Notes under the pieces: model-generated
Databases searched by the model: none
What the model was told of the DNA's origin: nothing
The model's input: the letters and a program-made list of their open reading frames with translations, nothing else
DNA from: Spizellomyces punctatus DAOM BR117
Taxonomy: Eukaryota
DNA: 63,525 bases
Strand: one strand, 5' to 3'
Assembly (NCBI GenBank): GCA_000182565.2
Contig: KQ257458.1
Part shown: positions 15,671-61,060 of the stretch, in pieces
How positions within the stretch are numbered: the first letter of the stretch is position 1
Layout of the letters: every line of letters starts with the position of its first letter
Translations under genes and position numbers: made by a program

Positions 15671-18380
15671 TTACTGGCGTGCAGACTGTCTTCTTTTCCA
15701 CAGCTTGTCCTGAAACGGAGGTGAAACCCTGGTGTTACTTATCAGAATGTTACTAATTGAAGCATCTCCACTTACGTCTCCATTCATCTTAGGTCCATTA
15801 ACAGGACCACTGGTAGCACGCATCAACGATGGAGAATGTACTTCTGTGGGAACAGCGCCATCACTCTGAATCCGACGAAAGTCCGCTAATGAAAAGCGGT
15901 GGTAGGGTGAGCGCGGAGTGCTATTATGCGGAGGCAGTGGAGCGGATGTGTCGCTGACCGCCGTGGATGGTCTGTTATGGGATTCGTTGGAAGGGTCGTG
16001 TTGGGGCTGAGACAGAGCAGACCCACCCAAGCCTAATAGCGCTTTGAGATGATTTTCTGGGTTATCACTACTGGGTATCTCAGGCCTGCTGCTATACACC
16101 TCCGATTGATAGCGTTCTAATGTGGCCAATGCAGGGGCATTGAAATTTGGTGGACCAGGTGTGCTCAGTGGCCATCTGCTCGCACTGTCAGCACCGCTGC
16201 TTGCTTGATTACCGCCAACACCTCCACCACCAATTCCCAACATCATCTTCAAGTGCGATTCCGCTTGCCCTGTGTTGGCTATCGGTAATGTTGGGTTCGA
16301 TGGCCCCTGTTCAGTCACGCTCCCGCGATTCTCGCCCATCAATATATCCAGCAACATCCGTTGCTTGGCTGGACCACGGTCCGCATTGCTAGTTACTGAC
16401 GCTCGTGACGGTGGCCCCGAAAATGCTTCTCGTAGAGGTTCAGAATCATAATTTGGTGGTAGAACGGTCGGTCTCGACGGCATCACTACGGGTTCCGCAC
16501 CCTGGAATGGTATCGTGGGAGGCGGTGGATTGATCGGGACAGGTATGGTGGCTTCCGGGTATGCGGCCGAACCCTTTGTCAAAATATCCAATAAGCTCTG
16601 CTTATGAGTCTGCTGGCCGCTGACGGCAGCAGGCATTGGCATAGGCACGGTGGACGCGATCTCATGGCGGCTCCTGGGAAGGAGAATCTGATTAGGTAAA
16701 TAAGGATGATGTTGGGAAAGATCAGGGTGGGTAGGAGTGGGGATAGGTACGCGGGCCTCTTGTCTTATGGATTGGGGTGTCCCGCTAGCTGCAGGTTGGC
16801 CAAACACCATCCCGAGGTTGGGAGCAATTCCCACAGGGAAAGACGGCGGTGCTCCGACTGCACTATGTGGCGTAGAAATGGTCAACGTAGTTGAGCTAGA
16901 ATGGGGTAATTGCGCAGACTGATACTGCTGAGTGTGTGCATGAAAGGGAGGAACAGGCTGCTCCACGGGTTCATTGAGCGTTGTCGACCGCACGGAAACG
17001 CCAAATACCACCGGGGGCATCTCCTTCGACACATGTGATTGCATATCGACTTGCACTCCAACGGCAGGAGTATTTACAGATGCCCCCACCCCAATCAATG
17101 CCTTGATAGATTGTGCTGCCACTTGTGCATCCATGACAGGAGTCGCTGCACCTTGTTTGGCCACATCTGTCCGTCGTAATAGTTGATAGTTGCCAACCAC
17201 CGACGCTGTTGGCATCCTTGAGTCGATGCCCGACTCTGTACCGGATCGGATGCCGGCGTCCGATGTCGCCCCTTCCCCTTCGCTGTCCGTTGCAGTATTG
17301 TAGCCCATTACTATGGAAAGATGACGCCCATTCCGCGCTTTGCCCTGGCGCTTCGCTTTTCGATATTTACTCATCCACTGCCGAAGGCCGCTAACGAATG
17401 CTGTGACCATGTAGTATTTTTGACGCCTCTCCCCTTTGGAGACTGGTACGTTCTCATCTTTGTTCCATCCCGGCAGATCATTAAGTTTGTGCCACCTGAT
17501 ATCCTGAATTGAATCAGTATAAGCATGAAGGTACAAACAGTGAACGAGCAGAACAGTCCTAAGAAGAAAACCATCTTACCCCGATCTCCTTTCGAGTTTG
17601 TGGAATGAATGTGGTTGCCTCAGGAACACCGGTCAAAATGTATAATCGTATTCTTTGTCCCTTGATCGTCCTCTCTACATACTCATTAACGCGTAAATAT
17701 GGAGTTATGTCGAATCCTGTCTCTTCTTTGACCTTGTGCCCAAAAGAACGATCAGGAGGAATATTTGGATGCGCTGACCATCAATACCATTCTTACCTCA
17801 CGAATAGCACATGGAGCTTCTGGCTCATCCTTATTTATTTTTCCTTTCGGAAAACCCCAACCTGAACTTGATTTCCAGCCTTTCACCAACAAAACCTAAG
17901 GTGGACGTTAGCAAGGAGCCGACCACTAGACACAGAACACTGTACCTTATCCAAACGCTCGTTGAGGATGATTGCTCCACATACTGGCACACGGACTTTG
18001 TACTCCATAAAGTTTTGAAAGGCTTTCTCGTGATCGTGAGCCCATCGATGGAGGAGTGGACAGTGCCGAAAAAACTGGGCGCAAAAGTTTTTTAAGGAAA
18101 ATGAAGGCAGTCGCGGGTTCTCTTCGCGAACGAAGTCCTCGTAAAACCAATGAGCTTGCTCTATTTGAAAACATATTCTTTCAACCGACGCTAGTTCTTC
18201 TTCTGGAATGTTAATGATGAAACGGCTGAGAGAGGGCGGAAGTCGGTGTGAGCTACAAACATCCGACGCATGGCCAAAAAGAATACTGTGCAAAATTCCA
18301 GCTATCATCTAGTTTCCACCATCGCTGTACCTTTGCAGATCGTCCAAAACTTCTTGGAACGTCAGGTCCTGAAATGACAT
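15671..18380 (-). CDS. DCP2: mRNA decapping enzyme Dcp2 (Box A + Nudix + long disordered tail with helical leucine-rich motifs)
   Basis: [55 protein letters not shown]...CAIREV.EETGFD. The tail has SLLDILTKG / MLLDILMG / HLKALLG HLM-like motifs. The 3' end may be spliced differently. Confidence 0.93.
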
Positions 18381-18495
18381 AATTTGTCGTGGGGTAAAAG
18401 GGAGCTTTTAACACTAGCTCACACACACAAGATTCAATGTCCATTATGGCACGTGATCCGCCGTGTGTAAGCCACCTTCCCCCGCATATCGATAA

Positions 18496-19175
18496 CACTA
18501 GGACCCATTATTATCCGGATTAATCCGGTTAATCATATCGCATAATCAGAACCCCCATCTATTGCTCAAAGCGGTGTGGCATGCTAATGTAACTTTTTTT
18601 TTAAACTGCGGTGAGGCACATGTTGAAGGTCTATAAAAGGGGGGCCTTTGCTGTCTCTTCCCTCTTTCCTCTTTACCCATCCTTGACTCTCAAACCATCT
18701 GCGCAACTCTCATCGCGAGTCCATCATGAGAATGCAGATGTGGTGGTGCCGAGGACCTTGCCCTCCCGACTACAACCAACTGGAACCAGCAACAATCACT
18801 CGGAACCAACAAAGCTGCTATTATGCTGCCACATTAGTTGAGCTTGGTTGGTATGTGCTGATTGCATCATTTCATTCTGTTATTCATCTCGCTGACATGC
18901 AGTTTTTTATAGTCTCCAAGTCTTGTCACTGAACATCCTCCAGCTTGCGAGTCTCCCCAATGTTGTGAAGACTCTGGCTTCAATGCCATCAAGAGTTCTG
19001 GATCAAGGCTTAGTAGGGACCGTGTGTGGTGGTGGGCAATTATCCGGTTAGAACCAACCGTTACGTATTGCGTGTATAATTGCCTAGTAGTAGTTAGATA
19101 GCTTTTCCGAACCGGTTGTCGCCGGTTTATTCCCTGGTGTAGTAGCTAGTGCCAGTTTCTGTCACCTCTACACTA
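18496..19175 (+). mobile_element. Non-autonomous Fanzor1-type 'ghost' element, copy 1 (left TIR mostly lost)
   Basis: Aligns along its length with 20845-21577 and with the reverse complement of 47766-48375. Right TIR CTAGTGCCAGTTTCTGTCACCTCTACACTA is intact; the left end starts at CACTAG. Confidence 0.85.
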
Positions 19176-19195
19176 TATTTTACAATGTCACCAAC
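19101..19195 (+). ncRNA. Putative Fanzor omegaRNA: 75-nt scaffold (19101-19175) + flank-derived guide TATTTTACAATGTCACCAAC
   Basis: GCTTTTCCGAACCGGTTGTCGCCGGTTTATTCCCTGGTGTAGTAGCTAGTGCC...CTACACTA, with stems AACCGG/CCGGTT and TGGTGTAG/CTACACTA. Closely resembles the SpuFz1 omegaRNA scaffold as I recall it (alignment needed). Guide length is assumed. Confidence 0.75.
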
Positions 19196-19229
19196 GATAC
19201 AATGAGCTATATACATGAGCTGCTTCCAA

Positions 19230-20093
19230 TCAAACCAGAATCAAAGCCACAGCAACGCCAGCCAAGCTCAGGCCAGCATTTCTAACTAAGGTCGAACCAG
19301 CAGACTTTGGCGCAGTTGAAGATCCAGTATTGGTTGCTGAGGAAGAAGAGGTCTTGAGCAAAACAGTCCATTCGCTGTTTGATTTGACGCTCGCACTCGT
19401 TGAGGCCGTCTTGTTTTCATCGGCATCAAATTTCGAGGTCTTTTCATCGACCATCCAAGCACCGTTCTAAATCGACAAATGTTAAAATGTGATTGGACGA
19501 ATTATGTAGACACAAATAGTGTTACCTGTACGAAAGCCAATCTAGTATCCATTAATTTGGCACCTGCACCACCAGCAGCGGTCACAGCTGCAGCGCTGAC
19601 TGCAAACTCAATCTTGGCACTTGCACCAGCAGCGAGAGCAGTACGATAGGTTACTTTCCAGGAGTTCTTGGCGAGTAATTTGAACCCGGATGGGACTGTG
19701 GATATGGATGGTGTACCAGATGTTACGGTCTAAAAATTGAAATTATAGGTTATTAGCACATACAGGAAACAGATAAAGCAAATAGTAAATTTGACAACCA
19801 ACCACTGTATTTGCCACGGTCGAATTGACATCTAACTCAAACCCATCAGGGTAAGTTACATCAACTTTCTTGCCAGCTACGAGAGTAACAGGAGTGTTTA
19901 GTGTGGCATTCACGCGCACACCATCCTTGTCGTCGTCTCCTTCCTCCTTCTCTTGACGTGCGAAAAGCACTTGATTTGTGCGTGAAAATTGAGTTACCGC
20001 CGCGATGTCTTGGCTAGGAGTTACGGCTGCGGCGGCAGCAGAGATGCCGAGAAGCATCAAGGCAAAAGTAGAAGAGAAGATCATTTTAACCAT
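19230..20093 (-). CDS. Secreted, probably GPI-anchored cell-surface protein (3 exons)
   Basis: Signal peptide MVKMIFSSTFALMLLGISAAAA; two GT-AG introns; S/T-rich linker and hydrophobic C-terminus SAGSTLVRNAGLSLAGVAVALILV*; TATAAAA ~65 nt upstream. Confidence 0.8.
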
Positions 20094-20820
20094 GACTAAG
20101 AAGGCGATGGCAAGAAAAGCAAGAAGATTGGAGGCAAGGTGCCCAGCTGAGTCTCCTTTTATAGACCATTTCTGTTGCCCCTTGTCCTCTTCAGCAATGG
20201 ATATATCGGCTGTTGCCAAGATAATTTGCATACATAGTCTGAGGTATCATGTCAATTCACAAGGGTAGGTAGCTTGGATGTTTGGGGTGGCTTTACAAGT
20301 AAGTTTAATGGAGGGCTTTGTGATGTCTCTTTGCGTATATGGATATTCGCAACGGGTGTCCAGAGCACAGAAATTATGTTCTACTTTCATGGTAAACCAA
20401 TCAGGGTTCTCTTGGCGCATATGGATTTGTTCTGACGGTGGAGGATTCTGCAACGGTGTCAGAACATTGGAAATTCTTGTTCTAAATCAATCCCCATTCA
20501 ACCGTGGTAGCGTCACTCTCACACGATCACAAAGGCCGAAATTTGAAAGTTGAATCATCTTCCCCAGTCCCATTTAGCCACGGACAATGCGAACCATCTC
20601 TATCCCTGAGGGAGCCCTAGAGCAATGGTGTGAACTTGAATTACTTGCCAAGAGCATGTAATGTCCAATTTCCAACAAATCTATTTACGTTGCCAAGACC
20701 GAGGCGGAGTGGGAGTGGTTGATTATCTATCAGCCCGAACCTAATCGACATTCTCATCTGTTGGAAAAGCCGATACGCAAATGTATCTCTGGCTTTCAGT
20801 GTCGACATGACTGGCCAACA

Positions 20821-21577
20821 TAGTGTGGAGGTGATTGAAAATGGCACTAGGACCCATTATTATCCGGATAATCCGGTTAATCATATCGAATAATCAGAAC
20901 CCCCTCTATCGCTCAAAGCGGTGTGGCATGCATGTAATGTTTTTTTTTTAAACTGCGGTGAGGCGCATGCCAAAGGTCTATAAAAGGGGGGCCTTTTCCC
21001 TCTTTCCTCTTTACCCATCCTCGACTCACAAGCATCTGCCCAACGCTCATCGCAACCCACATTGCAACCTCATAGTGACCCACATTGCAACCTCATTGCG
21101 ACTCGGTCAATCATGAGCATGCAGATGTGGTGGTGTCGAGGACCTCGTCCGCCCGACAGCAACAACGGCCAGAACCAGCAGCAACCAGTTGGATCTGTTG
21201 ACAAACCTACTATTATGCTGCCACATTTGTTGAGCTTGGTTGGTATGTACCGATGGCATCATTTCTTATCATCTGGTCATCTTCTGACATGCAGTTCTAG
21301 TCTCCAAGCCTTCGTTACTGAACATCCTCCGGCTTGCGAGTCTCCCTGACGATATTAACTCTCTTGCGACGACTCTCGCTTCAATGTCGATCAAGAGTTG
21401 CGGATCAAGGCCCAGTAGGAACGCGTGTGGTGGTGGGCAATTATCCGGTTAGAACCAACCGTTACGGATTGCGTGTATAATTGCCTAGTAGTTAGTTAGT
21501 TAGCTTTTCCAAACCGGTTGTCGCCGGTTTATTCCCTGGTGTAGTAGCTAGTGCCATTTTCTGTCACCTCTACACTA
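20821..21577 (+). mobile_element. Non-autonomous Fanzor1-type 'ghost' element, copy 2 (complete, 757 bp)
   Basis: 30-bp TIRs at 20821-20850 and 21548-21577 (27/30 match), each bounded by TA. Left junction reads CAACA|TAGTG (CATA). No transposase or nuclease ORF. Confidence 0.9.
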
Positions 21578-21597
21578 CAAAGAAATGATACGTGTGC
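21503..21597 (+). ncRNA. Putative Fanzor omegaRNA: scaffold 21503-21577 + guide CAAAGAAATGATACGTGTGC
   Basis: Scaffold differs from copy 1 at only two positions; similarity stops abruptly after ...CACTA. Confidence 0.75.
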
Positions 21598-22453
21598 TTA
21601 GATCAGCAAGCCCCAGTGGCGCATATTAAGCCACGCTTAAGTCGACTAAGCCTATGACGCAATGTGCATTAATTGTTTAATTGAGGTGAGTTGTGTCTTT
21701 TTTTGTACTGCGCAAAAAAGGCCCTCCGAGAACATGGAATAAAATGTAGGTTCGATCGATGCCCATGTGAAGAGTGTGAAATATGGATTAGAGATGGCTA
21801 TGAAAGATAGATGTGGATATGAGATTAGTGCAATGCAAATGTTGCATGGCCAATGTGCAATGGATATGTTTAATCGCAGGATAGTTCTAGATACGAAGAT
21901 GTCATGATTGCGTTGGGGGGGGGGGGGGGGAAGGAAGCACAGGAAGGAAAATCATTTCCCCTTTTACTATTGAAAGTGTGTCAATTTGAACAGCCCGGGG
22001 GGGAAAAGGCAACCTGTCACTTTTCCCCGCGTTGATTTTTTCATACGCAACTCATACTCACAGACGTCACTCGCGGCAACTGGCCATGAACAAAAGAAAA
22101 AAAAACATGCAATGAAATGGCTATGTTTTTCTGCCTTGGTTTTTGATTTTACGTTTTTTTTGGCTTGTCCATTAGCGCGTGAGTGTGATCTCACCCTTGG
22201 CTTCTTGATTACGCATTACTCACACGAACGGACCTTTTGGATTATACCTTTATCCTTCTCCTCTGTTCGTCCCCTAGGAAGGAATTTCATTGCTTTCTGT
22301 CAAAATATCCAAAAAGCAACTGTCGACATTTAGGAGCGGATAATCAAGAAGAAAGTAAAAATCTAACGTCTTTTCGATCTGTCAACTTTGGGTAAGTTGC
22401 TTTGTTTTGTTTTCCACGCGCGTCAAATCGCCCTGGTCTTTGCGACCCAAAGG

Positions 22454-25400
22454 ATGGTCGTTCATCAAAGGGTGAAACAGCTGCGGGGGGATTGGGTGCC
22501 ATCCACCACGCTTCGTCGCTCACGCTCCCAGACTTTCTTGCAGCACAGCATGGTCAACCGCTGGTCCGTTCTCCCGGGAGGAACGCCAAAGGCCCGCAAC
22601 GCTATCGCTCCCGTCGAATCCAGTCCCTCCCTTACACAGTCTGACTTTGAAAAGTTGACGCGCATCTACGCGCTTGTCGCTCACCGAGCTCGCCGTCTCG
22701 CCATCCTCCATCGCCATAAAGACAACAAGGCCCTCGTCACATCCTACCAGGAACTCGTCATCGACTGTCACTCCTTGCTCGCCCTCGTAGAAGAACGGTA
22801 TTTCCCGTCGCGTACCGAAAAGGGTGGGCATCAGTTTGCAACATGGTCCTCTCCGTCTGGGCATCATGCGAACGCACCAAGACCTGCGAGCGATCTTAAA
22901 TTTCCTGGAGCAAAACAGTTGGCCTTGATTCAAGCGGTTGGAACATTAAAGGATGCATTAAATACTTTGTCGCGTACCATCCGGCGGATATCATCTGGTA
23001 CACCACCGCCAGGAAGCGAGAGCACCGCAAAAGGTGAACAAGACCCTCTCGAGCGGGATCTCGCAACCGTCCTAACATCAGCACGATCGATCCTGGATGT
23101 TGCCAGCAAGTTTGAGCCTTCCCAAAGAAACGATCATCGGGCATTGAACAAACGTGCATCGTTGGGATCGATCTTCTCTCGCTTTGGCAATGGCAATGGC
23201 AACGGCAACACGAGCAACAGTAACAACAACAACCACAACAGCAACAGCAACAACAGCAGCACAAACAAACTCAATCGATCCTTTTCCGACCCAGTAACTG
23301 TAGAAGAGGCCCGTGATGCAAACGGGTCGTCGGGAACAAACGTCAAAAAGACCTTGTCTCTCGCCAAAGAGTCTCGCAAACGTCGCAGCGGGCTAACCAG
23401 TGAACGCCCTACCAGTGATCCTCTCTCAAAAGACTTTCGCAATGCCCTGTCTGTATTGTCTCAACTGACTACAGTGATTGGCAGCAATCTCCAAGAGTTT
23501 CGCCTTTTGCAGAGTAACATTTCAAATTCTTCCACGCCACTCGATCATAAACTCGTAATGGATATGGAAGTACTGGAACGCTGTTACGAAGATGCATTAG
23601 ATCAGCTAGTACCGCTCAGCTCATCCCTCGCGACACTATGGGAACAAGCCTTTGTCGGCAGCATCGGCGCCATCCAGCGTCTACGCCAATCAAACGCAGA
23701 AAAGGACCAGGAAATGTCTCGTCTGACAAGGCAATGCGAGGAATTCCAAAAAATGAACACAGCACTCTTGGAAGAGAATACACTGCTGAAGCGCGAAATG
23801 GAATTCATTCGTCGAACGGGCATGGAACCCTGTGCGACCCCCATGTCTGAGGACATGCGCTCCATAATCTCCCTCCCCCTCCCTAGCCCCGCTCTCGAGC
23901 TGGAACTGGTTGAAACAGATCTAGTCCCCAGCGCAATGTCCTCTATCGTCGTCTCACCCCCCGAACTCGACTATGTGGAAATCGTCGAGGAACAAACCAA
24001 CCATGCCGACGCGGTCGTTTTGAATAGATTGTACAGTGAAGTACGGGAAGCGCAGGCTTTGTTGGATGATGTGGAGAAGCGGAGGAGGAGTGTCATGGGA
24101 TCTTTGGATAGACCTGCTCGACCTAGATCCGAAAAGGCGCTCACCTTGCCTCGTATTGCAAGTTCTGCGCCCTTGTGGCACGATGTAGGTTGAAGTCTTT
24201 CTGGGCGTATTGTTTTATTATTTCCGATACTCAACGTTCTACAGTTTTTCCCTCAGGATCCCAAAGCCAAGGCATGTGTCATTATCCAAGCACGCTGGCG
24301 AGGCTATAGGGCGCGGAAAACTTTCAAAGGCATCAAACTCCGTTTGATGATTGTAAACGAAATGCTCGACACGGAGGCATCCTACGTGAAGGGCCTTCTG
24401 ACCATTCACAAGGTAAATATTTATCAAACCCACATTGTGTTTCTTTAGCGCTAACTTTCTTTTGACAGGAATTTATGATTCCACTCAAAGAAGAAATGAA
24501 TCAGAACAGCAGCATTATCAGTCGCAAGGATTATGACTGCATCTTTCGGCACGTGGAAGAGATTATGGCGTTCAACCAGCTCTTGTTGGATGATTTGGTC
24601 GAGCGGGTGGCGTTTTGGCATTTTGAGCAGGTTTTGGGGGATATTTTCATTCGTGCTGTAAGTATCTTGCAAGTGTTTAAGTTGATTGGGTATGTGGCCC
24701 TAACGCGCGGATCATGTAGGCCGAATCGATGAAAATATATGCGCACTTTGTCAACAAGTAGGTCCAATAGATAGCGGTAGTTATCCGTTTTTGATGTGAC
24801 TGACTTGCTTTTCAGTTACGACCAAGCTGTCGAAACCCTTAACCGTGTCTCAGAAAATCCAGCCTTTGAAAAAAAGCTACAGGTAACGACGCTCTAAAGA
24901 ATGCTGGAGATATAACGCATCCTAACACCTTGAGATGCAGGATATCAGCAAAAACATGGGCACCCGCGCCCCAAATTTGACCGACCTCCTCATCACACCA
25001 GTTCAACGTCCTCCTCGCTACCTTCTCATGCTCAAGGTAACCCACCAACCCCGTATTTCCCACGCCCTTGCACATCTAACCCCCGTTTCAAAACAGGAAC
25101 TCTTGAAGCGTACACCATCTACCCACCCCGACCATAACTCCCTCACCACCGCTCTCCAGAAAATGGAACGCACTGTCCAAATCATTAATGAACGCAAAAA
25201 GCGGTTCGAGATGATGAAAAAGGTTCAGGACATGGTTATCGGGAGTCCATTTGTAAGTCACACCGTGATATCAACATTCGTTGGCCGCGATACTTATATA
25301 TTTTTCTTTTGTCATTCTGTAGGAACTCGTGACACCTGGCCGGTACCTAACCCACCAGGGCCCCCTTCTCGAACTAAATGATCAAGGACCCGCTGCCGAC

Positions 25401-26768: not shown

Positions 26769-26840
26769 GGGCTCAGCCGGGAATCGAACCCGGGACCACC
26801 CGCACCCTAAGCGGGTATTATACCACTAAACCACTGAGCC
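26769..26840 (-). tRNA. tRNA-Pro(AGG)
   Basis: 72-nt cloverleaf GGCTCAG...CTGAGCC with anticodon arm CCCGC-TT-AGG-GT-GCGGG and GGTTCGATTCC T-loop; identical to 57203-57274. Confidence 0.97.
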
Positions 26841-34480: not shown

Positions 34481-35467
34481 TTACAAGGGGAGACGACGTG
34501 CGTGGCAAATGTTGCATTGCAGTCGGTGGGTATCGTCCAGGCTGTCCTGATTCGCGCATTCACTCGTGAGCCACAAAGGGCGTATTGAGGATTGTGTGTC
34601 TACAATACAAGTTCTATCCAATTGAACTTTTTGAGTACCAGCCATTCTTTTGCACAAGGATATGCCCTTGTCCACCTACCAGTTTCCTACTGATAATTTA
34701 AGATGCCCGGCTTCAATCGGCAGCAGCTCGCCAACTCCGTTTGTCGTCCAATTCCCCAAGCTTCGTCTGTTTTTTTCCCACGTTCAACTTGCAAAAGCCG
34801 TGGTTTGCTTGTACCGATTTCTTGGATTTCTTGCCTTTTGCGGCTTCGTCCCACACAGGTCACATGGCTGCCCAGATAGCTGGTTGGATCCGGCTAGAAA
34901 CTTTGTGGGCTTTGTCGGAGTTTGGTGCATCGCCCATTCCGGTGACAGCAACACTTGTCCGATACGCTAGGCGCTACAGTGCTTGCTCATTCATATCACC
35001 CAGGGTGTCATGGCAGAGATTCGAAAGAGCCTTAAATGGCAGCAGCGGGAAACATCCGATTTGGACCATTGCACATATCATTTACTGTTAGCTCTGTGAT
35101 GGGTTATCCAAATTGAAACTGCCCGGCATCACAAGCCAAGTGCAGTCCCTGCTTGTAATAGTCCAAGTCGTGTGCTTTAAATAGAATGTACTCAAGCCTG
35201 GGTTGAGCACTCTATGGACTCATTAGGCCAAATAGGGATACATCGGATGCTTACTTGATAATTAACACTCCGATCCGCTCGTCAAGGGCCATATCATTCA
35301 GTCTCCCTATTGTTGATTGTATTATATATTATATCTTCTGAGTATAGAACGTTTGATGGAATTGGACGGCCTATGCAGAGCAGTTGGAATCTGGTGCGTT
35401 TACCCTTGAAATATCTGGGGTAGCAGAGCGCCTTGCGGAAATTCGTCACTGGGTCCGTGACTGTGGA

Positions 35468-38400
35468 ATGATGCTTGGTCAAGTTCTCTCGCTGGTCTGT
35501 TTGGCTATTCTGCTTCAGGTTTCCCGCTCTGCCGTTGTCAGTGGTAGGGTAGACTCTATAACACTAGACATTGCATTGTCAGATGTGTTGGGACGGCAGG
35601 CATCTGCAGGAAGTGTGCCCACTGGATTGCTATCTACGTCAGCATCAGCCACAGCGACAAGTCTCAGTTCTTCACCCCAATCGAGTGCTACATCAACGTG
35701 GGACTCATCGTCGAGTCTCTCCCCCTCCAGTACCAATGCTTTCCCATCATCTTCAGCGTCATTTGGTACTGCATCCTCATCGTCATCTTCCTCCGCCCCC
35801 ATCACTACCTCTACCCCGATAACTGTCTCTTCCTCGGCATCGGGACACTCTTCCACTGCCGGCTCTGCCACCTCGAGTACATTTGCGCCAACGCCTCTTC
35901 CGTCTGCTATTGCGCCTTCCCCAATTACAGTTACGGCCATCGAACCACCCACTCTGTACACAAACCGTGGTCGACAAAATATTATACTTTCAGGAAATGG
36001 CTTTTCGATCTTGCGAGCGGCCGAGTTCTCTGTCAGTTTCACAAATATCACCATTCCAGCTGGAGCAACCACCGTGACAACTTTGTCAGATTCAGTTGTC
36101 GCAGTCACCGTCGATACCGATGCCATTAGCTTAAATGGCGACGTGTACCGTAACGGCTCCCTCATTATCTCCATTAGAGGAGCCGCCGACACCGTAAGGG
36201 ATGTGCGGTGGGTGGATCCCGTGAAGTCAATAGCAACGATAGTTTCGCCGAGCAAGGTGACCATTGGAGTGGGCAGCCCAGTGCATATAACAGGAATCAA
36301 TTTGCTCCCCCCAGTAGGGCAAGCACTTTGCGTGTTTAATGCCACCAGAATATCAGCAACAAACGCTACGTATGATAACGGAACCTATACCTGCCTTGCC
36401 CCTGATATGTATGGAAGCGGTATCCTGGAAGTGAATCTTCTCTACTATACACCTCAGCGGGATCTCTCGTCTTTTGGCGGCAGAAACTCTACCGACTATA
36501 ACCGGCCAACTGACTATGTCAGTACTGTAGTTGGGCAACCCCTATTGCTGTATTACCGTGCCGGTCCTCCAAAGGTCATCTATGCTCGTTTTACTATAAC
36601 CGGAGCAATCGAGTTTCGGTATGATCGGCCGGTGACAGTGTACGACGCAAATCTCTTCGCAGTGGATCCCAAAGCCAGTCATTCCACCTTGATTAGTGCT
36701 CTAAACGGTCGGGAAACCTTTACTTGTGAAAAGATGTTCCTGAATCCTAATGGAGGGACAGGACGCTTGTGGGTCACCCAAGCAAATGCAGAATGTTATA
36801 TCCAGCGAATGGATGCAAGGACTTTTAGGATTATCATTGGTGCGAGTGAAGCCCAGAAGATAATTGAAGCTGGCCTTTCCCCAGTGGTGGCAGGTGACTC
36901 GCTGTCACTAAAGCCAGGTGCAGTGTGGACAGCAGGTGAGGAGCTGAGCGAGACAGGGACGGGGTCTACCATCGTTGAGGGAATTCTTTCGCCGAACCGC
37001 ATCGTGCGTCCTACCGTACTTGTTAAGGCACCGCAAATCATTGGCAGCTGCTCTGATGTGACTTTTGATCTGTCGAGGTCGATGGGATCGGCTGGACGTA
37101 ATTTCAATCAAAGCACTTTCAGTGTCGCCCCCGCTGTAGATTCACTGCAAGCAGAGCTGACCGCGTTTGCCAAAGCTTTCATTTTGCGTAATGAGCTGGT
37201 GTACACTATTGCGGCATCCAAAATCCCTGTTGGAAGATACCAATTCACCTTTACCTTAAGGAACTTCCTTGGAGGAGTTGGAACGTCGACCTTCATATTA
37301 GAGAAATTTGACCGGCGAGATATTCCTTATGTTACTATAACGGGTCCGGCCAACGATGCTCCATTGGACCAGTTGCACACTATAACGGCCGAGGTTGCTG
37401 CGACATGTGGAGCTCTCCGACCAGTGAGTTTTCAATGGGAATCGCAAGACGTACTCATTTCTACGGCAAATGGCACAATGGTTACAATGGAAGCGTATTC
37501 TTTGAGTCATCAAAGTCGATACTCCTTTATAGCTCGTGCTAAGTTCACGGATGAACCTAGTCCAACGCTGTGGACGTTGAATTACACGTTTACGACAGAG
37601 CTGGATCGAGTCATGCCAGTTACCATCACAGAGGTGTTAGCCGGTGGTGGAACGAATAAGAATGCTTCTCAGTCTCCATTGCTTCTATCAACGACACTTT
37701 TTGACAGTGGCTATCCGCCCAGTAATGTCAACATCTCTGACTTTACTTGTATATGGAATTGCACCCGAGTGGGAGAACCTTTCGGGACTCCATGCATCAA
37801 AGAAGAGACAGGGCAAGGAGCTTCTATTCCCGCCATCTGTACTGGTGCCGATATCACTGGCTACTTAGATACAGGAAGATATGCTTTTACTTTAGAGACC
37901 GTACGGATCGGTACTGGAGCTATCAGCTCGACAGACGAGAGTGGAGCACCAATGTTCGTCGATGTAATCGACCAGTGGATCCCGCTAGTTACCGTTACCC
38001 CAAATATGCCATACCCTTCGCGCTGGGACTTGTACGAGCTACGCGCAGGCGTCAACCCAATCTCTGTTCTCAATGGTGTTGACAAGGTGAGGTATTCTTG
38101 GTTTTCCAACGAATCTTGTCACGGAGACATCTTCTCCACGGTAGACGTGGCGGACACGTCCAAGGTGCAATGGCAGCCAGGTGCACCAACCCTCCGTTTC
38201 CTGCCACAAACCCTGCTAGCGGCTGGAAAGTATTGCTTCACTGTGTTCGCGAATGATACGGCACGGAACGCTATTGGTCAAGCGTCTATAGTGGTGTCTG
38301 TTCGGGAAGCACCGTTTGCTGGATACTGTTCTTTGAATGCTACCGATGGACTCGCCTATCAGTCGGTATTCAGGATAAGTTGCGCTGGGTGGGTCACGGA

Positions 38401-40159
38401 TCCTCAATCGAATCCCCTGTTCTACACCTATTGGATTCGAAAAGTCGGTGACATACCCTGGAGCAATTTGGGCCCACGCTCACAATTTTCCGTGCTCGAC
38501 ACGGTGCTCGCGGAGGGAACATATGAAGTTACAGTCAACGTTACAGATGCTGCAGGCTCTGTTGGTGCTCTACAACCCGTCTACAGGCTGACGGTCAGAC
38601 CTCGCCTCACTAGGCGACAGGTGCAGCCAATTTCAGAACCCGCCGTCACGGCCTTCGCCTTTCTGAACGCTTCTATAGAGAGCTATCTAGCCACCTCCGA
38701 CTACCGAACAGCTCAAACCAACCTTGTTGTGGCTATTCAAGATCTGAGCCCAGAGTTGCTGAATACTGCGTACCACGATACTCTCCTCACATTTTTTGGC
38801 TACCTTCTCAACTCTGGAAGCATTTACATGGACGCCCAATCTGGAGGCCCTTATATGTTGCACGCGCTGCAATCCATGACAATGGACTGTTACAATCTTA
38901 CGACGAATATTACTACCAGGCTACTGAGTTCTTTGAATGCCGTTATGACACAGATTGACGAGACCACCCGAGGGGCGGGAAACTGTGTTGGAAGCGCAGC
39001 TACGAATGATGCAATGAAGGTTTTGGATGCAGTGATGGGCTCACTAACACATCATCCAGATGAAGGGGATTATAGAATTATCACACAGCTGGATGGAATC
39101 ATGAAGAGGATTGAAAGCTGTGTGTATCGAACGTTAACGTGTGGTGGACCTGTTTTCACCGTCGATCAACAATTTGTAAACAAAACGGTGGGAATCGCTC
39201 AAGTCGATCCTTCTACTGGCCATTTGGACTTCTGCGGGCGGTTCAACCTTCCTGCCTCAGCTAGTCCGGTTAGCAGTGGTTCTTGTCTCAAGTTCAGCTG
39301 TGCCGTAGTAAATAGTAATGCGCTCACATCATCAGTGGGCACAGCTGCCATGGCGGGTCTTGGAAGCAACCTCACTAGCTTATCGTTGTACGGAAGCACG
39401 CCCATGGTGCCCTTGAATATCTCACTGCCAGACCAAAGCATTAATATTACTCTTGGTGTCGATCGTGAGATTCTCGCTCGGCAGCAGGCGCAGCCTGGAT
39501 CATCACTTGTTTGTGCATGGTTTGACTATGTGAAAGATGGAGGGCGATGGTCGACAGACGGATGCACCTTGGCCGCATTGAATGAGACAACCTTGACAGG
39601 TGTTTGCCAGTGCAGCCACCTGACGGACTTTGTAATAGACCTTCAAAATCCAGGTGGAAGTACCCCACTTGTCCAGCCATCGATACCAACTCCAACGTCA
39701 ACGTCTACCACGTCGCCTGACGACATGAAACCACCGATTGCCGAACCTCAAGGAGCACCGACACCATCTGCATCTTCAACTGAGAGCGTGCTAGCAGGCC
39801 CTCCCCAAGATCAAGTGTCTAGCAACTCTGGTAAAATAGCAGGAGCAGTTGTGGGGTCGACAGCAGCCGTAGCTCTCCTTGCCGGTCTATTATTTTGGTA
39901 CCGTCGCAATCATAACCACAAGTGGTGGACATTCCAGGGCCTTCCCAGAGCAATCCCACCTCCGCAGCAGCCGCTCCCAACATCTCTCCCCCGTCAACCG
40001 CTACCAATGGCCGTTCCTGGCCCACCTCGCGCATACGGTTTCAGAGAAGCACGACGTGAGGAGTTGCCCGAATACGTGTTTCCGCCGACGTGGCAGGAGC
40101 ATTTGGAAAATGTTGGCCAGGCTGGGGGGAGTACAGAGAGGCTACACACAGGAGGTTGA
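35468..40159 (+). CDS. Polycystin-1/REJ-like single-pass receptor: signal peptide, S/T mucin region, IPT-like, REJ, GAIN/GPS, TM
   Basis: Intronless ORF of ~1560 aa. REJ-like motifs DLSRSMGSAGR and P..GYCS...TDGLAYQSVFRISCAGWVTDP..PLFYTYW; GPS CAWFD...WSTDGC.....CQCSHLTDF; TM IAGAVVGSTAAVALLAGLLFWYRR. Confidence 0.85.
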   Translation: MMLGQVLSLVCLAILLQVSRSAVVSGRVDSITLDIALSDVLGRQASAGSVPTGLLSTSASATATSLSSSPQSSATSTWDSSSSLSPSSTNAFPSSSASFGTASSSSSSSAPITTSTPITVSSSASGHSSTAGSATSSTFAPTPLPSAIAPSPITVTAIEPPTLYTNRGRQNIILSGNGFSILRAAEFSVSFTNITIPAGATTVTTLSDSVVAVTVDTDAISLNGDVYRNGSLIISIRGAADTVRDVRWVDPVKSIATIVSPSKVTIGVGSPVHITGINLLPPVGQALCVFNATRISATNATYDNGTYTCLAPDMYGSGILEVNLLYYTPQRDLSSFGGRNSTDYNRPTDYVSTVVGQPLLLYYRAGPPKVIYARFTITGAIEFRYDRPVTVYDANLFAVDPKASHSTLISALNGRETFTCEKMFLNPNGGTGRLWVTQANAECYIQRMDARTFRIIIGASEAQKIIEAGLSPVVAGDSLSLKPGAVWTAGEELSETGTGSTIVEGILSPNRIVRPTVLVKAPQIIGSCSDVTFDLSRSMGSAGRNFNQSTFSVAPAVDSLQAELTAFAKAFILRNELVYTIAASKIPVGRYQFTFTLRNFLGGVGTSTFILEKFDRRDIPYVTITGPANDAPLDQLHTITAEVAATCGALRPVSFQWESQDVLISTANGTMVTMEAYSLSHQSRYSFIARAKFTDEPSPTLWTLNYTFTTELDRVMPVTITEVLAGGGTNKNASQSPLLLSTTLFDSGYPPSNVNISDFTCIWNCTRVGEPFGTPCIKEETGQGASIPAICTGADITGYLDTGRYAFTLETVRIGTGAISSTDESGAPMFVDVIDQWIPLVTVTPNMPYPSRWDLYELRAGVNPISVLNGVDKVRYSWFSNESCHGDIFSTVDVADTSKVQWQPGAPTLRFLPQTLLAAGKYCFTVFANDTARNAIGQASIVVSVREAPFAGYCSLNATDGLAYQSVFRISCAGWVTDPQSNPLFYTYWIRKVGDIPWSNLGPRSQFSVLDTVLAEGTYEVTVNVTDAAGSVGALQPVYRLTVRPRLTRRQVQPISEPAVTAFAFLNASIESYLATSDYRTAQTNLVVAIQDLSPELLNTAYHDTLLTFFGYLLNSGSIYMDAQSGGPYMLHALQSMTMDCYNLTTNITTRLLSSLNAVMTQIDETTRGAGNCVGSAATNDAMKVLDAVMGSLTHHPDEGDYRIITQLDGIMKRIESCVYRTLTCGGPVFTVDQQFVNKTVGIAQVDPSTGHLDFCGRFNLPASASPVSSGSCLKFSCAVVNSNALTSSVGTAAMAGLGSNLTSLSLYGSTPMVPLNISLPDQSINITLGVDREILARQQAQPGSSLVCAWFDYVKDGGRWSTDGCTLAALNETTLTGVCQCSHLTDFVIDLQNPGGSTPLVQPSIPTPTSTSTTSPDDMKPPIAEPQGAPTPSASSTESVLAGPPQDQVSSNSGKIAGAVVGSTAAVALLAGLLFWYRRNHNHKWWTFQGLPRAIPPPQQPLPTSLPRQPLPMAVPGPPRAYGFREARREELPEYVFPPTWQEHLENVGQAGGSTERLHTGG

Positions 40160-43364: not shown

Positions 43365-43450
43365 GCTTCCGTGGCGCAATTGGTTAGCGCGTTCGGCTGT
43401 TATCTCGTATAGCTACCGAGAGGTTGCCAGTTCGACCCTGGCCGGGAGCG
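43365..43450 (+). tRNA. tRNA-Asn(GTT) with 12-nt intron (43403-43414)
   Basis: Acceptor GCTTCCG/CGGGAGC, D arm TGGCGCAATTGGTTAGCGC, anticodon CT-GTT-A^A with the intron at canonical 37/38, T arm GCCAG-TTCGACC-CTGGC. Confidence 0.95.
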
Positions 43451-47745: not shown

Positions 47746-47841
47746 AAAGCCCCGTCTCACGCGCTTAGTGTATTAGGTGACAGAAACTGGCACTAGCTAC
47801 TACACCAGGGAATAAACCAGCGATAACTGGTTCGGAAAAGC
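47746..47841 (-). ncRNA. Putative Fanzor omegaRNA: scaffold 47841-47766 + guide AGCGCGTGAGACGGGGCTTT
   Basis: Scaffold GCTTTTCCGAACCAGTTATCGCTGGTTTATTCCCTGG...ATACACTA; stem 1 shows a compensatory G-C to A-T change relative to copies 1 and 2. Confidence 0.75.
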
Positions 47842-48400
47842 CAAGTAATTCCCTCCTTACAACCAACCAACTACTACTAGGCCCAATTACACATGCAATA
47901 CATTACGGTTGTTCTAACCGGGTAACTAGCGCCCACCACCACGAGAGAAATCCTACTAAGCCCTTGATTCCGAAATTCTTTAGTCGGAGGATGTTCAGAT
48001 ACTAATTAAACCAGAATTAGACTCGGAATACGCGTGGGAAAATACAAAGATAATGCATACCTGCGATCGTTGCAGCATAGTAGTAGCAGTGTTTGCAAGG
48101 GGTTATGTTGTTGTCGTTGTCGGGCGGACGAGGTCCTCGGCACCAGAGCAATATTCTCATGATGGACTGAGACTTGTTGGGCGGATGCTTTGAGTCGAGG
48201 ATGGGAAAAGAGGAAAGAGGGAAAAGGCCCCCCTTTTATAGACCTTTGGCATGCGCCTCACCGCAGTTTAAAAAAAAAGTTACATTAGCATGCCACACCG
48301 CTTTGAGCAATAGATGGGGGTTCTGATTATGCGATATGATTAACCGGATTAATCCGGATAATAATGGGTCCTAGTGCCATTTTCAATCACCTCCACACTA
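47766..48400 (-). mobile_element. Non-autonomous Fanzor1-type 'ghost' element, copy 3 (complete, 635 bp, more diverged interior)
   Basis: Left TIR (reverse complement of 48371-48400) is identical to that of copy 2 and preceded by CAACA; right TIR at 47766-47796; TA at both ends. Confidence 0.9.
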
Positions 48401-48738
48401 TGTTGATGAGGGGTTCTTCGACGGAGGTCGCAGTAAAAAGTGATATAGAAACTCAGATACAAGCTTTTATTTCTTAACGATGCTCCAGTGTTTATTCTGC
48501 TGCTCCAGTATATGACTCCCCAACTGATGATGGCCCTTTATACAGCTCCAGCTCATGCTATACCCATGTATATGACATCTTCCAAGATCATTGCTAGCTA
48601 AGAGAATATACAATATTCCATGACGTCCATGACTATACAACACAATTAATGGGCTCCCTTTTCTCACTTCAATGTTTTCCAGAAAATATCCAGATTGTAG
48701 CAGACGTTCTGAGCAAGCCTCTGTTCAGGTCGATTTAC

Positions 48739-57202: not shown

Positions 57203-57274
57203 GGCTCAGTGGTTTAGTGGTATAATACCCGCTTAGGGTGCGGGTGGTCCCGGGTTCGATTCCCGGCTGAGCCC
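57203..57274 (+). tRNA. tRNA-Pro(AGG)
   Basis: Canonical cloverleaf, identical to the copy at 26769-26840; T-run terminator at ~57296. Confidence 0.97.
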
Positions 57275-57336
57275 CTACATTTCAAAATGATTGTCTTTTT
57301 GCTTCTCGTCACCTAGTCAGTAAGTTTGTCATTTGG

Positions 57337-57563: not shown

Positions 57564-57757
57564 ATCGGACATCACGCAGGCAGCCGTCTCAGATCAGCTG
57601 TTTTCCTCTACTGTTCAGTGGTATTGAATACTAATATTACATGCTTTTAAAATACAGAAAAACAGGCGAGATACTTTCAATGCATTGGATAATAAATGAT
57701 ATAAATGTACTCTGTAACAAATCCAGCAGTATTTGCTATTCTAGTCTTAAAATGGGT
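57564..57757 (+). promoter_or_regulatory. Conserved upstream element of PPxY gene A
   Basis: Near-identical to the reverse complement of 60871-61060; core also present at 60064-60144 (reverse complement). Confidence 0.7.
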
Positions 57758-57901: not shown

Positions 57902-59276
57902 ATGGACAAGCCGGCCGTAAGACTACCAACCGATGCAACTCATATTACGATTGTTCTTTATAGTGATGAGGCTGTAAAGGATGATGAGTATTATATGCGG
58001 GAGGTTCTGCAGTTACCTTTCCCGTGCTTATGGAAAGTGACTGCATGCCCAGTTCGCGGTGGACGGACCAGAGTCACTATAGTTTTGAGACCAGAAGATA
58101 AGGCTCTTTCTGATATTCTTGACCATTTAAGAATCATCAGCGATGGGCAATATGAAGTTAACAACTTTATTATTCATAGTAAATCAGGTCGAAGACTGGG
58201 TCTGGAAGAGTGCTGCTCTTCTAGTTTGGATCTGGAAAACACTTTGAGATGTTTGGGCATAATTGGTTAGTAGAGTTGGTTTCTCATTCTTATTTCCTCA
58301 TATCGCAAATTTACTGAATGCATGCTTTCAGTTCTGGATGCACCTCCGAATTATGCAGACCTGGTTCAAGAAGCGCTTGAAGGTAATATTGTATTCATGA
58401 TATTTGGCCTTATGACTTTCACCGTCTGGAGATGGATTCCCATAACCGCAGGACTTCGATTTGCGTTCTTACCATCGATTAGTATGGAGACCAGCTAAAG
58501 CATTCGGCCTGGTCAGTCAATCGGTGGCCATTCCCTCCTGCTGTAATTCGACCTGTGGCGGCTATATTCAAAGCAATTGGACGTAGCGGCAAGCGATATT
58601 ACTCTGCCTTTCTCTCCTGCTGTGATCTGACTTGCGGCGGCTATATTCAAAGCACCTGGGCGTAGCGGCAAGCGATATCACTCTGCCTTTCTCTCCTGCT
58701 GTGACCAACTTGGGTGCAGTGGCAAGCGGACTGGGGAGTGGTTCCTCCTTCTACCAACCCAGTTGTGGCGGTGTGGTTCAAAGCATGTTGGGACGCAGTG
58801 GCAAGCGGACTGGGGAGTGGTTCCTCCTTCTACCAACCCAGTTGTGGCGGTATGGTTCAAAGCAGGTTGCGGCACAGTGGCAAGCGGAGTGGGGTCGGTT
58901 GGTTGCATCATACCGAATGCGGCGGTTGCGTTGAAGTACTAGGCATCAAGTCGTTGGTCATTTCGTATTCGTCGTTCGATAGACGGATCCCATTTCCAGC
59001 TAAGTCGCGCTTTTGTGTGTATTCCTGATTTATCATTTATTATATTCCCAAACTTTAGAAAGGAAGAAAAGGGTCTGGACGGAACAAGTAGAAAAGGATC
59101 AAGAGGCAGACAGGAGACGCATGAAGGCGCGTTTAATAGATGCTATGGAGTAAGTAACCATTGACTTCTCTAGCTTTTTATTACAGATTATTTATCAAAT
59201 TCGTTACAGGGTTTTAGGTGACCGTGCGGCGGTGGTTCGGCTGGATCAGGATGGTTTTAGCTTTGTTTTGAAATGA
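57902..59276 (+). CDS. PPxY family paralog A (extra ~120-aa N-terminal region; 4 exons)
   Basis: Introns 58266-58331, 58383-59058 and 59150-59209 give an open frame ...VLDAPPNYADLVQEALEERKKRVW...EADRRRMKARLIDAMEVLGDRAAVVRLDQDGFSFVLK*. Confidence 0.65.
58497..58935. repeat. Tandem array of ~5-6 degenerate 79-bp units inside intron 2 of gene A
   Basis: Period of 79 bp (58561/58640; 58721/58800/58879); two sub-types share GGCAAGCG and TTCAAAGCA. Confidence 0.85.
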
Positions 59277-59779: not shown

Positions 59780-59905
59780 GAGTACAGTGAATTGGCGAGT
59801 AAAACGAGTACAGTACACTGAATTGGCGAGTAAATCGAGTACAGTACACTGAATTGGCGAGTAAATCGAGTACAGTACGCTGAATTGGCGAGTAAATCGT
59901 ACCGT
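59780..59905. repeat. 31-bp tandem repeat (GAGTACAGTACACTGAATTGGCGAGTAAATC) x ~4
   Basis: Units at 59780 (shortened), 59806, 59837 and 59868; abuts the ATG of paralog B. Confidence 0.92.
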
Positions 59906-60870: not shown

Positions 60871-61060
60871 ACCCATTTCCTTAATACTAGAATAGCAAAT
60901 ATTGCTGGATTTGTTACAGAGTACATGGACAGAATTTATTATGCGATGCATTGAAAGTATCTCGCCTATTTTTCTGTATTTCTGAAGTATGTAAAATTAG
61001 TATTTAATACCACTGAACAGTAGAGGAAAACAGCTGATCTGAGACGGCCTGAAGTCCGAT
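60871..61060 (-). promoter_or_regulatory. Conserved upstream element of PPxY gene C
   Basis: Inverted near-copy of 57564-57757. Confidence 0.7.

Follow-up and report, generated by a model that had tools for sequence, protein, structure and literature searches.

A TATA box and a spliced leader transcript upstream of the omegaRNA scaffold in ghost elements of Spizellomyces punctatus

Three ghost copies and their layout

The window analyzed here, the whole stretch of 63,525 nt, holds exactly three copies of one gene-less element. Their extents and terminal features are as follows.

18496 to 19175, plus strand: ghost copy 1, 5'-truncated, with homology beginning inside the left inverted repeat
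20821-20850 through 21577, plus strand: ghost copy 2, with both inverted repeats present
20819 to 20850, plus strand: CA dinucleotide and 30-nt left inverted repeat of copy 2
21548 to 21577, plus strand: right inverted repeat of copy 2, within the scaffold at 21503 to 21577
47766 to 48400, minus strand: ghost copy 3, with its right end at 47766
48371 to 48402, minus strand: CA dinucleotide and left inverted repeat of copy 3

Copy 1 has no left inverted repeat because its homology begins inside that repeat. The arms of copy 2 are 30-nt inverted repeats that are 90% complementary. The left inverted repeat is identical in copies 2 and 3, and the right arm of copy 3 was detected over 22 nt at 86%. 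The CA stands directly before the left inverted repeat in copies 2 and 3, at the place where copy 1 is truncated. The elements are 635-757 bp long as compared with the 638 aa of SpuFz1, and no Fanzor ORF lies between the inverted repeats.

In S. punctatus DAOM BR117, 134 ghost loci with 30-nt inverted repeats have been reported, outnumbering the nuclease genes (134 vs 42; PMC10432273, Saito et al., 2023). The sections of that article on ghost loci describe a CA upstream of the 5' inverted repeat, the lack of a Fanzor ORF, a body consisting of a conserved region of about 550 nt, and a 75-nt omegaRNA scaffold followed by a 14-15-nt guide from the flanking DNA (PMC10432273). The three repeats fit these "ghost Spu-1" elements, since the inverted repeats, the CA before the left one, the two-stem scaffold and the numbering of scaffold residues all match; the DNA-level comparison covers 3 of the 134 reported copies. 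The structured RNA regions lie in the right part of each element.

19101 to 19175, plus strand: omegaRNA scaffold of copy 1, 75 nt, two stems, reaching to the right inverted repeat
19176 to 19190, plus strand: expected 15-nt guide of copy 1 in the flank, placed from the published 14-15-nt extension (PMC10432273)
21503 to 21577, plus strand: omegaRNA scaffold of copy 2, 75 nt including the right inverted repeat
47766 to 47841, minus strand: omegaRNA scaffold of copy 3, 76 nt, with one compensatory pair in stem 1
19030 to 19089, plus strand: predicted Y-shaped RNA fold of copy 1, upstream of the scaffold
21431 to 21490, plus strand: predicted Y-shaped RNA fold of copy 2
47872 to 47941, minus strand: predicted Y-shaped RNA fold of copy 3, with two compensatory pairs

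Fold prediction gave the scaffold two stems and a linker (z of -4.1, -2.9 and -0.8). When numbered from 19101, the scaffold agrees with the residues named in PMC10432273 for the linker (A29-C34), U35, G37, A72 and A75; the 5' residues U5-C7 given there fit the copy 1 scaffold only with a 1-nt offset. A search of Rfam over 18300-21800 returned no match at E<=1. Conservation among the three copies is concentrated at the two ends: the left 200 nt, from the inverted repeat to the pyrimidine tract, are 70-93% invariant and the last 130 nt are 83-90% invariant, with 0-70% for the leader, ORF and intron. The similarity is also mosaic. Which copies agree best changes along the element: 1 and 3 show no difference for about 90 nt in the 5' block, the surroundings of the left inverted repeat and the TATA box are identical in 2 and 3, and in the body copy 1 is most similar to copy 2. 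This pattern suggests recombination or gene conversion among copies.

Published locus sizes speak against ghosts having arisen from the Fanzor gene simply by deletion, and that idea was rejected. The Fanzor-bearing locus measures 2.1 kb, its ORF encodes 638 aa, and about 80 nt follow the stop codon (PMC10432273). It would leave no room for the 290 nt that precede the ATG in a ghost, so the ghost body is probably not derived from it by deletion alone. The long ORFs adjoining copies 1 and 2 (15671-17575, minus strand; 22367-24193, plus strand) matched no Pfam family and no relevant solved structure, and no Fanzor gene was found in them.

Several other features were recorded in the window. The tRNA-Pro(AGG) gene is present twice, as identical copies in inverted orientation, at 26769-26840 (minus strand) and 57203-57275 (plus strand), and ARAGORN returned an anomalous prediction at 43365-43450, with an anticodon of 4 bases. 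An open frame of 1600 aa at 35357-40159 (plus strand) has a REJ domain and a GPS motif, which mark its predicted product as a polycystin-like receptor. Tandem repeats with units of 79 nt and 31 nt occupy 58527-58873 and 59781-59899, and a 168-nt inverted repeat pair was found at 57583-57750 and 60881-61048.

Promoter-like signals, introns and open frames

The original prediction held that all three copies keep a TATAAAAG box, a pyrimidine tract and an ATG, and these signals were found at the predicted places in each of them.

18632 to 18639, plus strand: TATAAAAG box of copy 1
20979 to 20986, plus strand: TATAAAAG box of copy 2
48233 to 48240, minus strand: TATAAAAG box of copy 3
18646 to 18700, plus strand: pyrimidine tract of copy 1 (82%), with a copy-specific 9-nt insertion
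20993 to 21030, plus strand: pyrimidine tract of copy 2 (84%), the likely transcript start region

The box occurs eight times on the two strands of the window, three of them at homologous places in the repeats. The tract downstream of it is 82-84% pyrimidine; 84% was reached in just 125 of the 126,974 38-nt windows. The first ATG after the TATA box lies at 18726 in copy 1 and 21113 in copy 2 (plus strand) and at 48160 in copy 3 (minus strand). The resulting leaders of 86, 126 and 72 nt are free of upstream ATG codons. In copy 2, the start of the leader (21018-21039) is complementary to 21121-21142, just after the ATG (22 nt, 73%).

An intron of about 60 nt had been predicted at the same place in every copy, and the signals were located there.

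18851 to 18912, plus strand: 62-nt GT..AG intron of copy 1, supported by signals and junction reads
21243 to 21300, plus strand: 58-nt GT..AG intron of copy 2, supported by signals and junction reads
48002 to 48060, minus strand: 59-nt intron-like segment of copy 3 (GTATG, CTAAT, TAG), identified from its signals

All three introns start with GTATG and end in TAG, with a CTRAY box 13-17 nt before that end. Across both strands of the window (127 kb), 5.19 occurrences of this intron pattern were expected and five were found, three of which lie in the ghost copies. The copy 3 intron had been described as unrelated in sequence between exons that still align, and this proved correct: it is only about 27-40% identical to the other two, which is roughly random, and the flanks align. 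By our own arithmetic, the chance of finding the pattern in copy 3 within 15 nt on either side of the homologous donor is about 1e-3. Judged from the alignment, the copy 3 intron has been replaced in sequence, yet its signals are retained.

Removal of these introns opens a short reading frame in each copy.

18726 to 18850, plus strand: copy 1 mini-ORF, first-exon portion beginning with the ATG
18913 to 19051, plus strand: copy 1 mini-ORF, second-exon portion up to its stop codon
21113 to 21242, plus strand: copy 2 mini-ORF, first-exon portion beginning with the ATG
21301 to 21452, plus strand: copy 2 mini-ORF, second-exon portion up to its stop codon
48061 to 48160, minus strand: copy 3 mini-ORF, first-exon portion beginning with the ATG
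47877 to 48001, minus strand: copy 3 mini-ORF, second-exon portion

The spliced frames have the predicted 87, 93 and 74 aa (68, 78 and 47 aa unspliced, in the order of copies 1, 2 and 3) and the predicted N-terminal WCRGPxPPD. Copies 1 and 2 indeed share LNILxLASLP and their C-terminal end, and in both of them the stop codon lies within the Y-shaped fold.

Among 1.84 billion representative proteins, four matched the copy 2 exon-1 peptide at E<=0.001. Three of the four, together with one cluster mate, are S. punctatus DAOM BR117 gene models of 70-86% identity.

SPPG_09019: S. punctatus gene model, 258 aa
SPPG_09412: S. punctatus gene model, 80 aa
SPPG_09407: S. punctatus gene model, 144 aa
SPPG_08830: S. 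punctatus gene model, 105 aa

Each of the four models has the same exon junction as the window copies, so the spliced form is recorded at four more ghost loci in the public annotation. Two of the four start at an ATG upstream of the TATA box. SPPG_09019 is one that starts upstream of the ghost TATA box. It uses the mini-intron, removes a second intron over the Y-structure and continues through the scaffold into an ALG12-like mannosyltransferase. It is a read-through model from a ghost into an ALG12-like gene, and ghost elements may feed read-through transcripts into neighboring genes. In a search with a 45-aa copy 1 reference for further models that read through the scaffold, nothing was found at E<=0.1 among 36 candidates. 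The repetitive protein P0004 (1163 aa, E 1.5e-5) was set aside as a chance match to a low-complexity stretch; apart from it, the protein searches of the 1.84 billion representatives returned no relative outside ghost copies. The exon-1 peptide matched nothing among solved structures at E<=10.

The WCRGPxPPD motif is present in all seven ORFs, that is, the three in the window and those of the four models. Placed on the spliced RNA of copy 2, the seven share a common frame for the first 15-30 aa only, after which all three frames are used, and they end in three different frames. A conserved protein is unlikely because the frames differ between copies, and the original view that frames shift midway under weak protein constraint was upheld. 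Conservation of the N-terminal motif could reflect RNA pairing with the complementary leader segment rather than the peptide. The window ORFs are nevertheless longer than about 99% of dinucleotide shuffles (P = 0.010, 0.013 and 0.012, values that are not independent given the relatedness of the copies), and the differences between copies 1 and 2 include frame-restoring indels. It seems, from the sequences compared, that the open frame as such has been retained.

Transcription and splicing in the reads

Reads from four runs were mapped over 18300-21700, i.e., over copies 1 and 2. X10 is an RNA run with raw reads of at most 60 letters. X4 and X5, of unrecorded run type, have an even depth of about 2 on the unique DNA between the copies and of 50-385 on the repeats; given this even cover of unique DNA, they behave like low-coverage DNA. 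X1 consists of contigs that are uncertainly RNA. For contig runs in general, depth is a poor measure.

Splicing was observed directly. In X10, a GT..AG joint from 18849 to 18912 (cut +1) skips 62 nt, with 508 reads whose first mate lies on the plus strand, 2 with it on the minus strand and 14 starts, and a joint from 21241 to 21300 skips 58 nt (49 plus, 0 minus, 13 starts). These RNA-seq joints fall exactly at the introns predicted for copies 1 and 2. Two cross-copy joints between equivalent donor and acceptor places (110 and 0 reads; 41 and 0 reads) derive from paralogues. Of 710 junction reads in X10, 708 lie on one strand, and the GT..AG orientation of the joints identifies the RNA as sense to the omegaRNA. 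The contigs of the DNA-like runs X4 and X5, which drop rare variants, contain no spliced joint, and record 16 of X4 reads across the intron in unspliced form. Contigs 6, 7 and 8 of X1 have no differences to copy 2 and break at 21242 and 21300; their loose ends correspond to the other exon, so the spliced form of copy 2 is also present in X1.

At the copy 1 acceptor, about 549 junction reads compare with an X10 depth of 770 at 18921, nine bases on, and at the copy 2 acceptor 159 junction reads compare with a depth of 268 at 21313. By our own arithmetic, half or more of the RNA is therefore spliced. As many as 83,272 of the 86,325 mapped X10 reads fit only in part, and at position 18759 of copy 1 another letter was read in 170 of 171 reads. 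Most reads on copy 1 thus come from paralogues, and they are evidence for the ghost family rather than for copy 1 itself.

The start of the transcript was approached through copy 2. Its sense depth in X10 is 7 at 20970, 9 nt before the TATA box, and rises to 2007 at 21029 and 1991 at 21040, whereas the DNA-like depth in X4 falls from 355 to 75 and 31 at the same positions. The jump suggests that the transcript begins between 20971 and 21029, probably inside the pyrimidine tract. No pile-up of read starts was listed, at the scaffold 5' end or elsewhere. Copy 1 has no such depth step because its private 9-nt insertion after the TATA box repels paralogue reads. Antisense reads were also recorded upstream of and around the copy 2 TATA box (20922-21035), with a bin depth of 91.8 on the other strand and 176 antisense as compared with 7 sense reads at 20970; they possibly represent divergent transcription from that promoter.

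The 3' part of the unit is the most abundant. The Y-shaped fold coincides with the peak of RNA depth, 20,750 in X10 in the bin 18984-19097. Relative to X4 depth, the leader, exons and scaffold reach about 10-60 and the region 19010-19051 reaches 40-150 (a crude ratio by our own arithmetic), so that with this crude copy-number normalization the 3' structured part exceeds the exons 3-10-fold. Coverage also continues past the right end of copy 2, in the unique flank.

21578 to 21700, plus strand: guide (first 15 nt) and read-through in the unique flank of copy 2, with a depth of 47.5 over 21606-21700

Positions 21606-21700 are too distant to belong to a mature omegaRNA, and the depth there indicates read-through past the right end of copy 2. 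Copy 1 has none (depth 0.12 over 19212-19325).

Two further observations concern the structured region. At 19024-19096, a very abundant RNA is common to this stretch and then continues in unrelated sequence (4747 X10 reads, 0.99 agreement), and one X1 contig runs 92 nt beyond the same stretch. This RNA may be a ghost fragment contained in some other strongly expressed transcript, or a paralogue whose linker differs. At 19055-19119 and 19056-19096, small numbers of X10 reads (3-8 each) connect opposite strands; they are probably template-switch artefacts at hairpins.

Guide-RNA production and relation to known systems

How Fanzor guide RNA is made in eukaryotic cells is not a settled matter. 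Published Fanzor work has shown a 90-nt RNA and used artificial promoters for editing, and S. punctatus is described as transformable (PMC10432273). For the ghost elements, the evidence leans towards transcription of Pol II type that begins downstream of the TATA box and gives a spliced leader transcript with the omegaRNA at the 3' end. The TATA box and the pyrimidine-rich start region would drive a sense RNA, most likely by Pol II to judge from the splicing. The precursor would comprise a leader of 70-130 nt, the first AUG, a short and poorly conserved frame and one spliceosomal intron of 58-62 nt, followed in order by the Y-structure, the omegaRNA scaffold of 75-76 nt and read-through into the flank, which would supply the guide. 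Cleavage or trimming of the spliced precursor would release the mature omegaRNA, about 90 nt long, from its 3' part, for binding by SpuFz1, which would itself come from a Fanzor-bearing locus elsewhere. Retention of the intron and the open frame may serve expression, export or stability of the precursor rather than a protein.

The original prediction had proposed processing of the guide from a spliced Pol II transcript. Its first element, a spliced sense RNA of Pol II type starting just after the TATA box, is supported by the reads and by the four gene models. Derivation of the omegaRNA from the 3' end of that transcript is plausible, with scaffold-bridging reads and the read-through at copy 2 in its favor and the drop of X1 depth at the scaffold against it. 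The suggestion of an open frame retained without protein constraint fits the data, as the ORFs beat about 99% of shuffles and their frames differ between copies.

Three other explanations were weighed. There could be two separate RNAs, namely a spliced mini-transcript that ends before the scaffold and an omegaRNA initiated independently, for instance at a TATA-like box some 25 nt ahead of the scaffold. X1 contig depth falls from 180 over 18984-19097 to 9.9 over 19098-19211 at the copy 1 scaffold and is 0 over 21492-21605 in copy 2, which would fit a transcript ending before the scaffold. Copies 1 and 2 have a TATAAT 24-29 nt ahead of the scaffold, and the excess of the 3' region over the exons fits a separate transcript as well as a stable product. 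Yet 3759 X10 reads mapped up to 19093 continue into the first scaffold bases, with the linker spelled as in other copies, 4757 come in from the upstream arm at 19099, and X1 record 5 spans 19067-19153, all crossing from the upstream structure into the scaffold; X10 reads, at 60 nt or less, do not link exon 1 and the scaffold within one molecule. The TATAAT, moreover, belongs to a stem of the Y-structure and is absent in copy 3, and the listed X10 read starts include no pile-up at the scaffold 5' end. Two separate RNAs are accordingly regarded as unlikely. A Pol III transcript was also considered and set aside, as no fixed T-run follows the variable guide and reads bridge the scaffold 5' end.

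The remaining two explanations concern the body of the element. It could be the decaying remnant of a captured or former gene that is spliced by inertia and has no role in guide production, and its low conservation (0-70% invariant, the least in the element), the differing frames and the mosaic similarity are all in keeping with decay. Decay accords poorly with the copy 3 intron, which has turned over fully and still retains donor, branch box and acceptor (about 1e-3 by chance), with three of three window ORFs staying open despite frame changes (P of about 0.01 each), with leaders that lack an AUG in all three copies, and with a parent gene that was not found among the 1.84 billion representatives (E<=0.001). 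A remnant with no role in guide production is considered slightly less likely than two separate RNAs. An accessory micropeptide of 74-105 aa, the alternative offered by the original prediction, would begin at the first AUG of the transcript and would account for the N-terminal motif in seven of seven ORFs and for ORFs longer than chance. It is disfavored by frames that diverge past 15-30 residues and end in all three frames, as well as by the lack of relatives outside ghost copies and of a solved-structure relative of the exon-1 peptide at E<=10, and a functional peptide is held to be very improbable.

The preferred reading of a spliced precursor with the omegaRNA at its 3' end can be taken further, tentatively and with less confidence. 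Ghosts might be dedicated Pol II guide-RNA genes with a capped, spliced, ORF-bearing leader that is open and spliced in order to survive quality control and be exported, and whose 3' end is turned into omegaRNAs for Fanzor, with the Y-structure as a processing or stabilizing signal. If true, this would be the first native route shown for the guide-RNA biogenesis of a eukaryotic RNA-guided nuclease. Should ghosts be spliced Pol II units, guide supply becomes testable through the promoter, splicing and RNA decay, the conservation of the approximately 550-nt body would be explained, and native 5' extensions, including the Y-shaped structure, would suggest themselves for guide design. At least four S. 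punctatus "hypothetical proteins" are flagged here as ghost transcripts, one of them fused to a neighboring gene.

The spliced leader transcript is a new feature of a known element. The text on ghost loci in PMC10432273 and PMC13434818 mentions no promoter, intron, ORF or host transcript, although the supplementary locus files may annotate such features. The preprint 10.1101/2023.08.09.552727 makes no mention of an intron, and the promoters it mentions are bacterial only. In the literature on Fanzor splicing, promoters and biogenesis, no work on this subject was recognized by title or by the start of the abstract among the matches listed. The claim that the feature is undescribed for ghost loci therefore holds for the text of the two articles. 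Public annotation already contains spliced ORF models from other ghost copies, entered as hypothetical proteins and not linked to ghost loci.

In their inverted repeats, CA, body of about 550 nt, 75-nt scaffold and flank-derived guide, the elements resemble ghost Spu-1 as described by Saito et al. (2023; PMC10432273). They differ from the description of ghosts given there in the promoter, intron and ORF found here and in the splicing seen in reads.

Other known systems offer partial parallels. In bacterial IS200/IS605 elements encoding TnpB, the omegaRNA is taken from the 3' part of the tnpB transcript. The likeness lies in a guide RNA at the 3' end of a longer transcript that crosses the right end of the transposon; unlike in TnpB elements, the ghost has no nuclease gene in cis, and it combines a eukaryotic TATA box and a spliceosomal intron with a nuclease supplied in trans. 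Eukaryotic snoRNA host genes are transcribed by Pol II, their transcripts are spliced and contain a short ORF of poor conservation, and their value resides in the processed small RNA. In these hosts the small RNA is usually intronic, whereas in the ghost it would occupy the 3' end of the last exon and extend into the flank. MITE-like non-autonomous elements share with ghosts their short length, bounding terminal inverted repeats, many copies and dependence on a protein in trans; what sets the ghosts apart from them is a promoter of their own, an intron and a guide-RNA scaffold.
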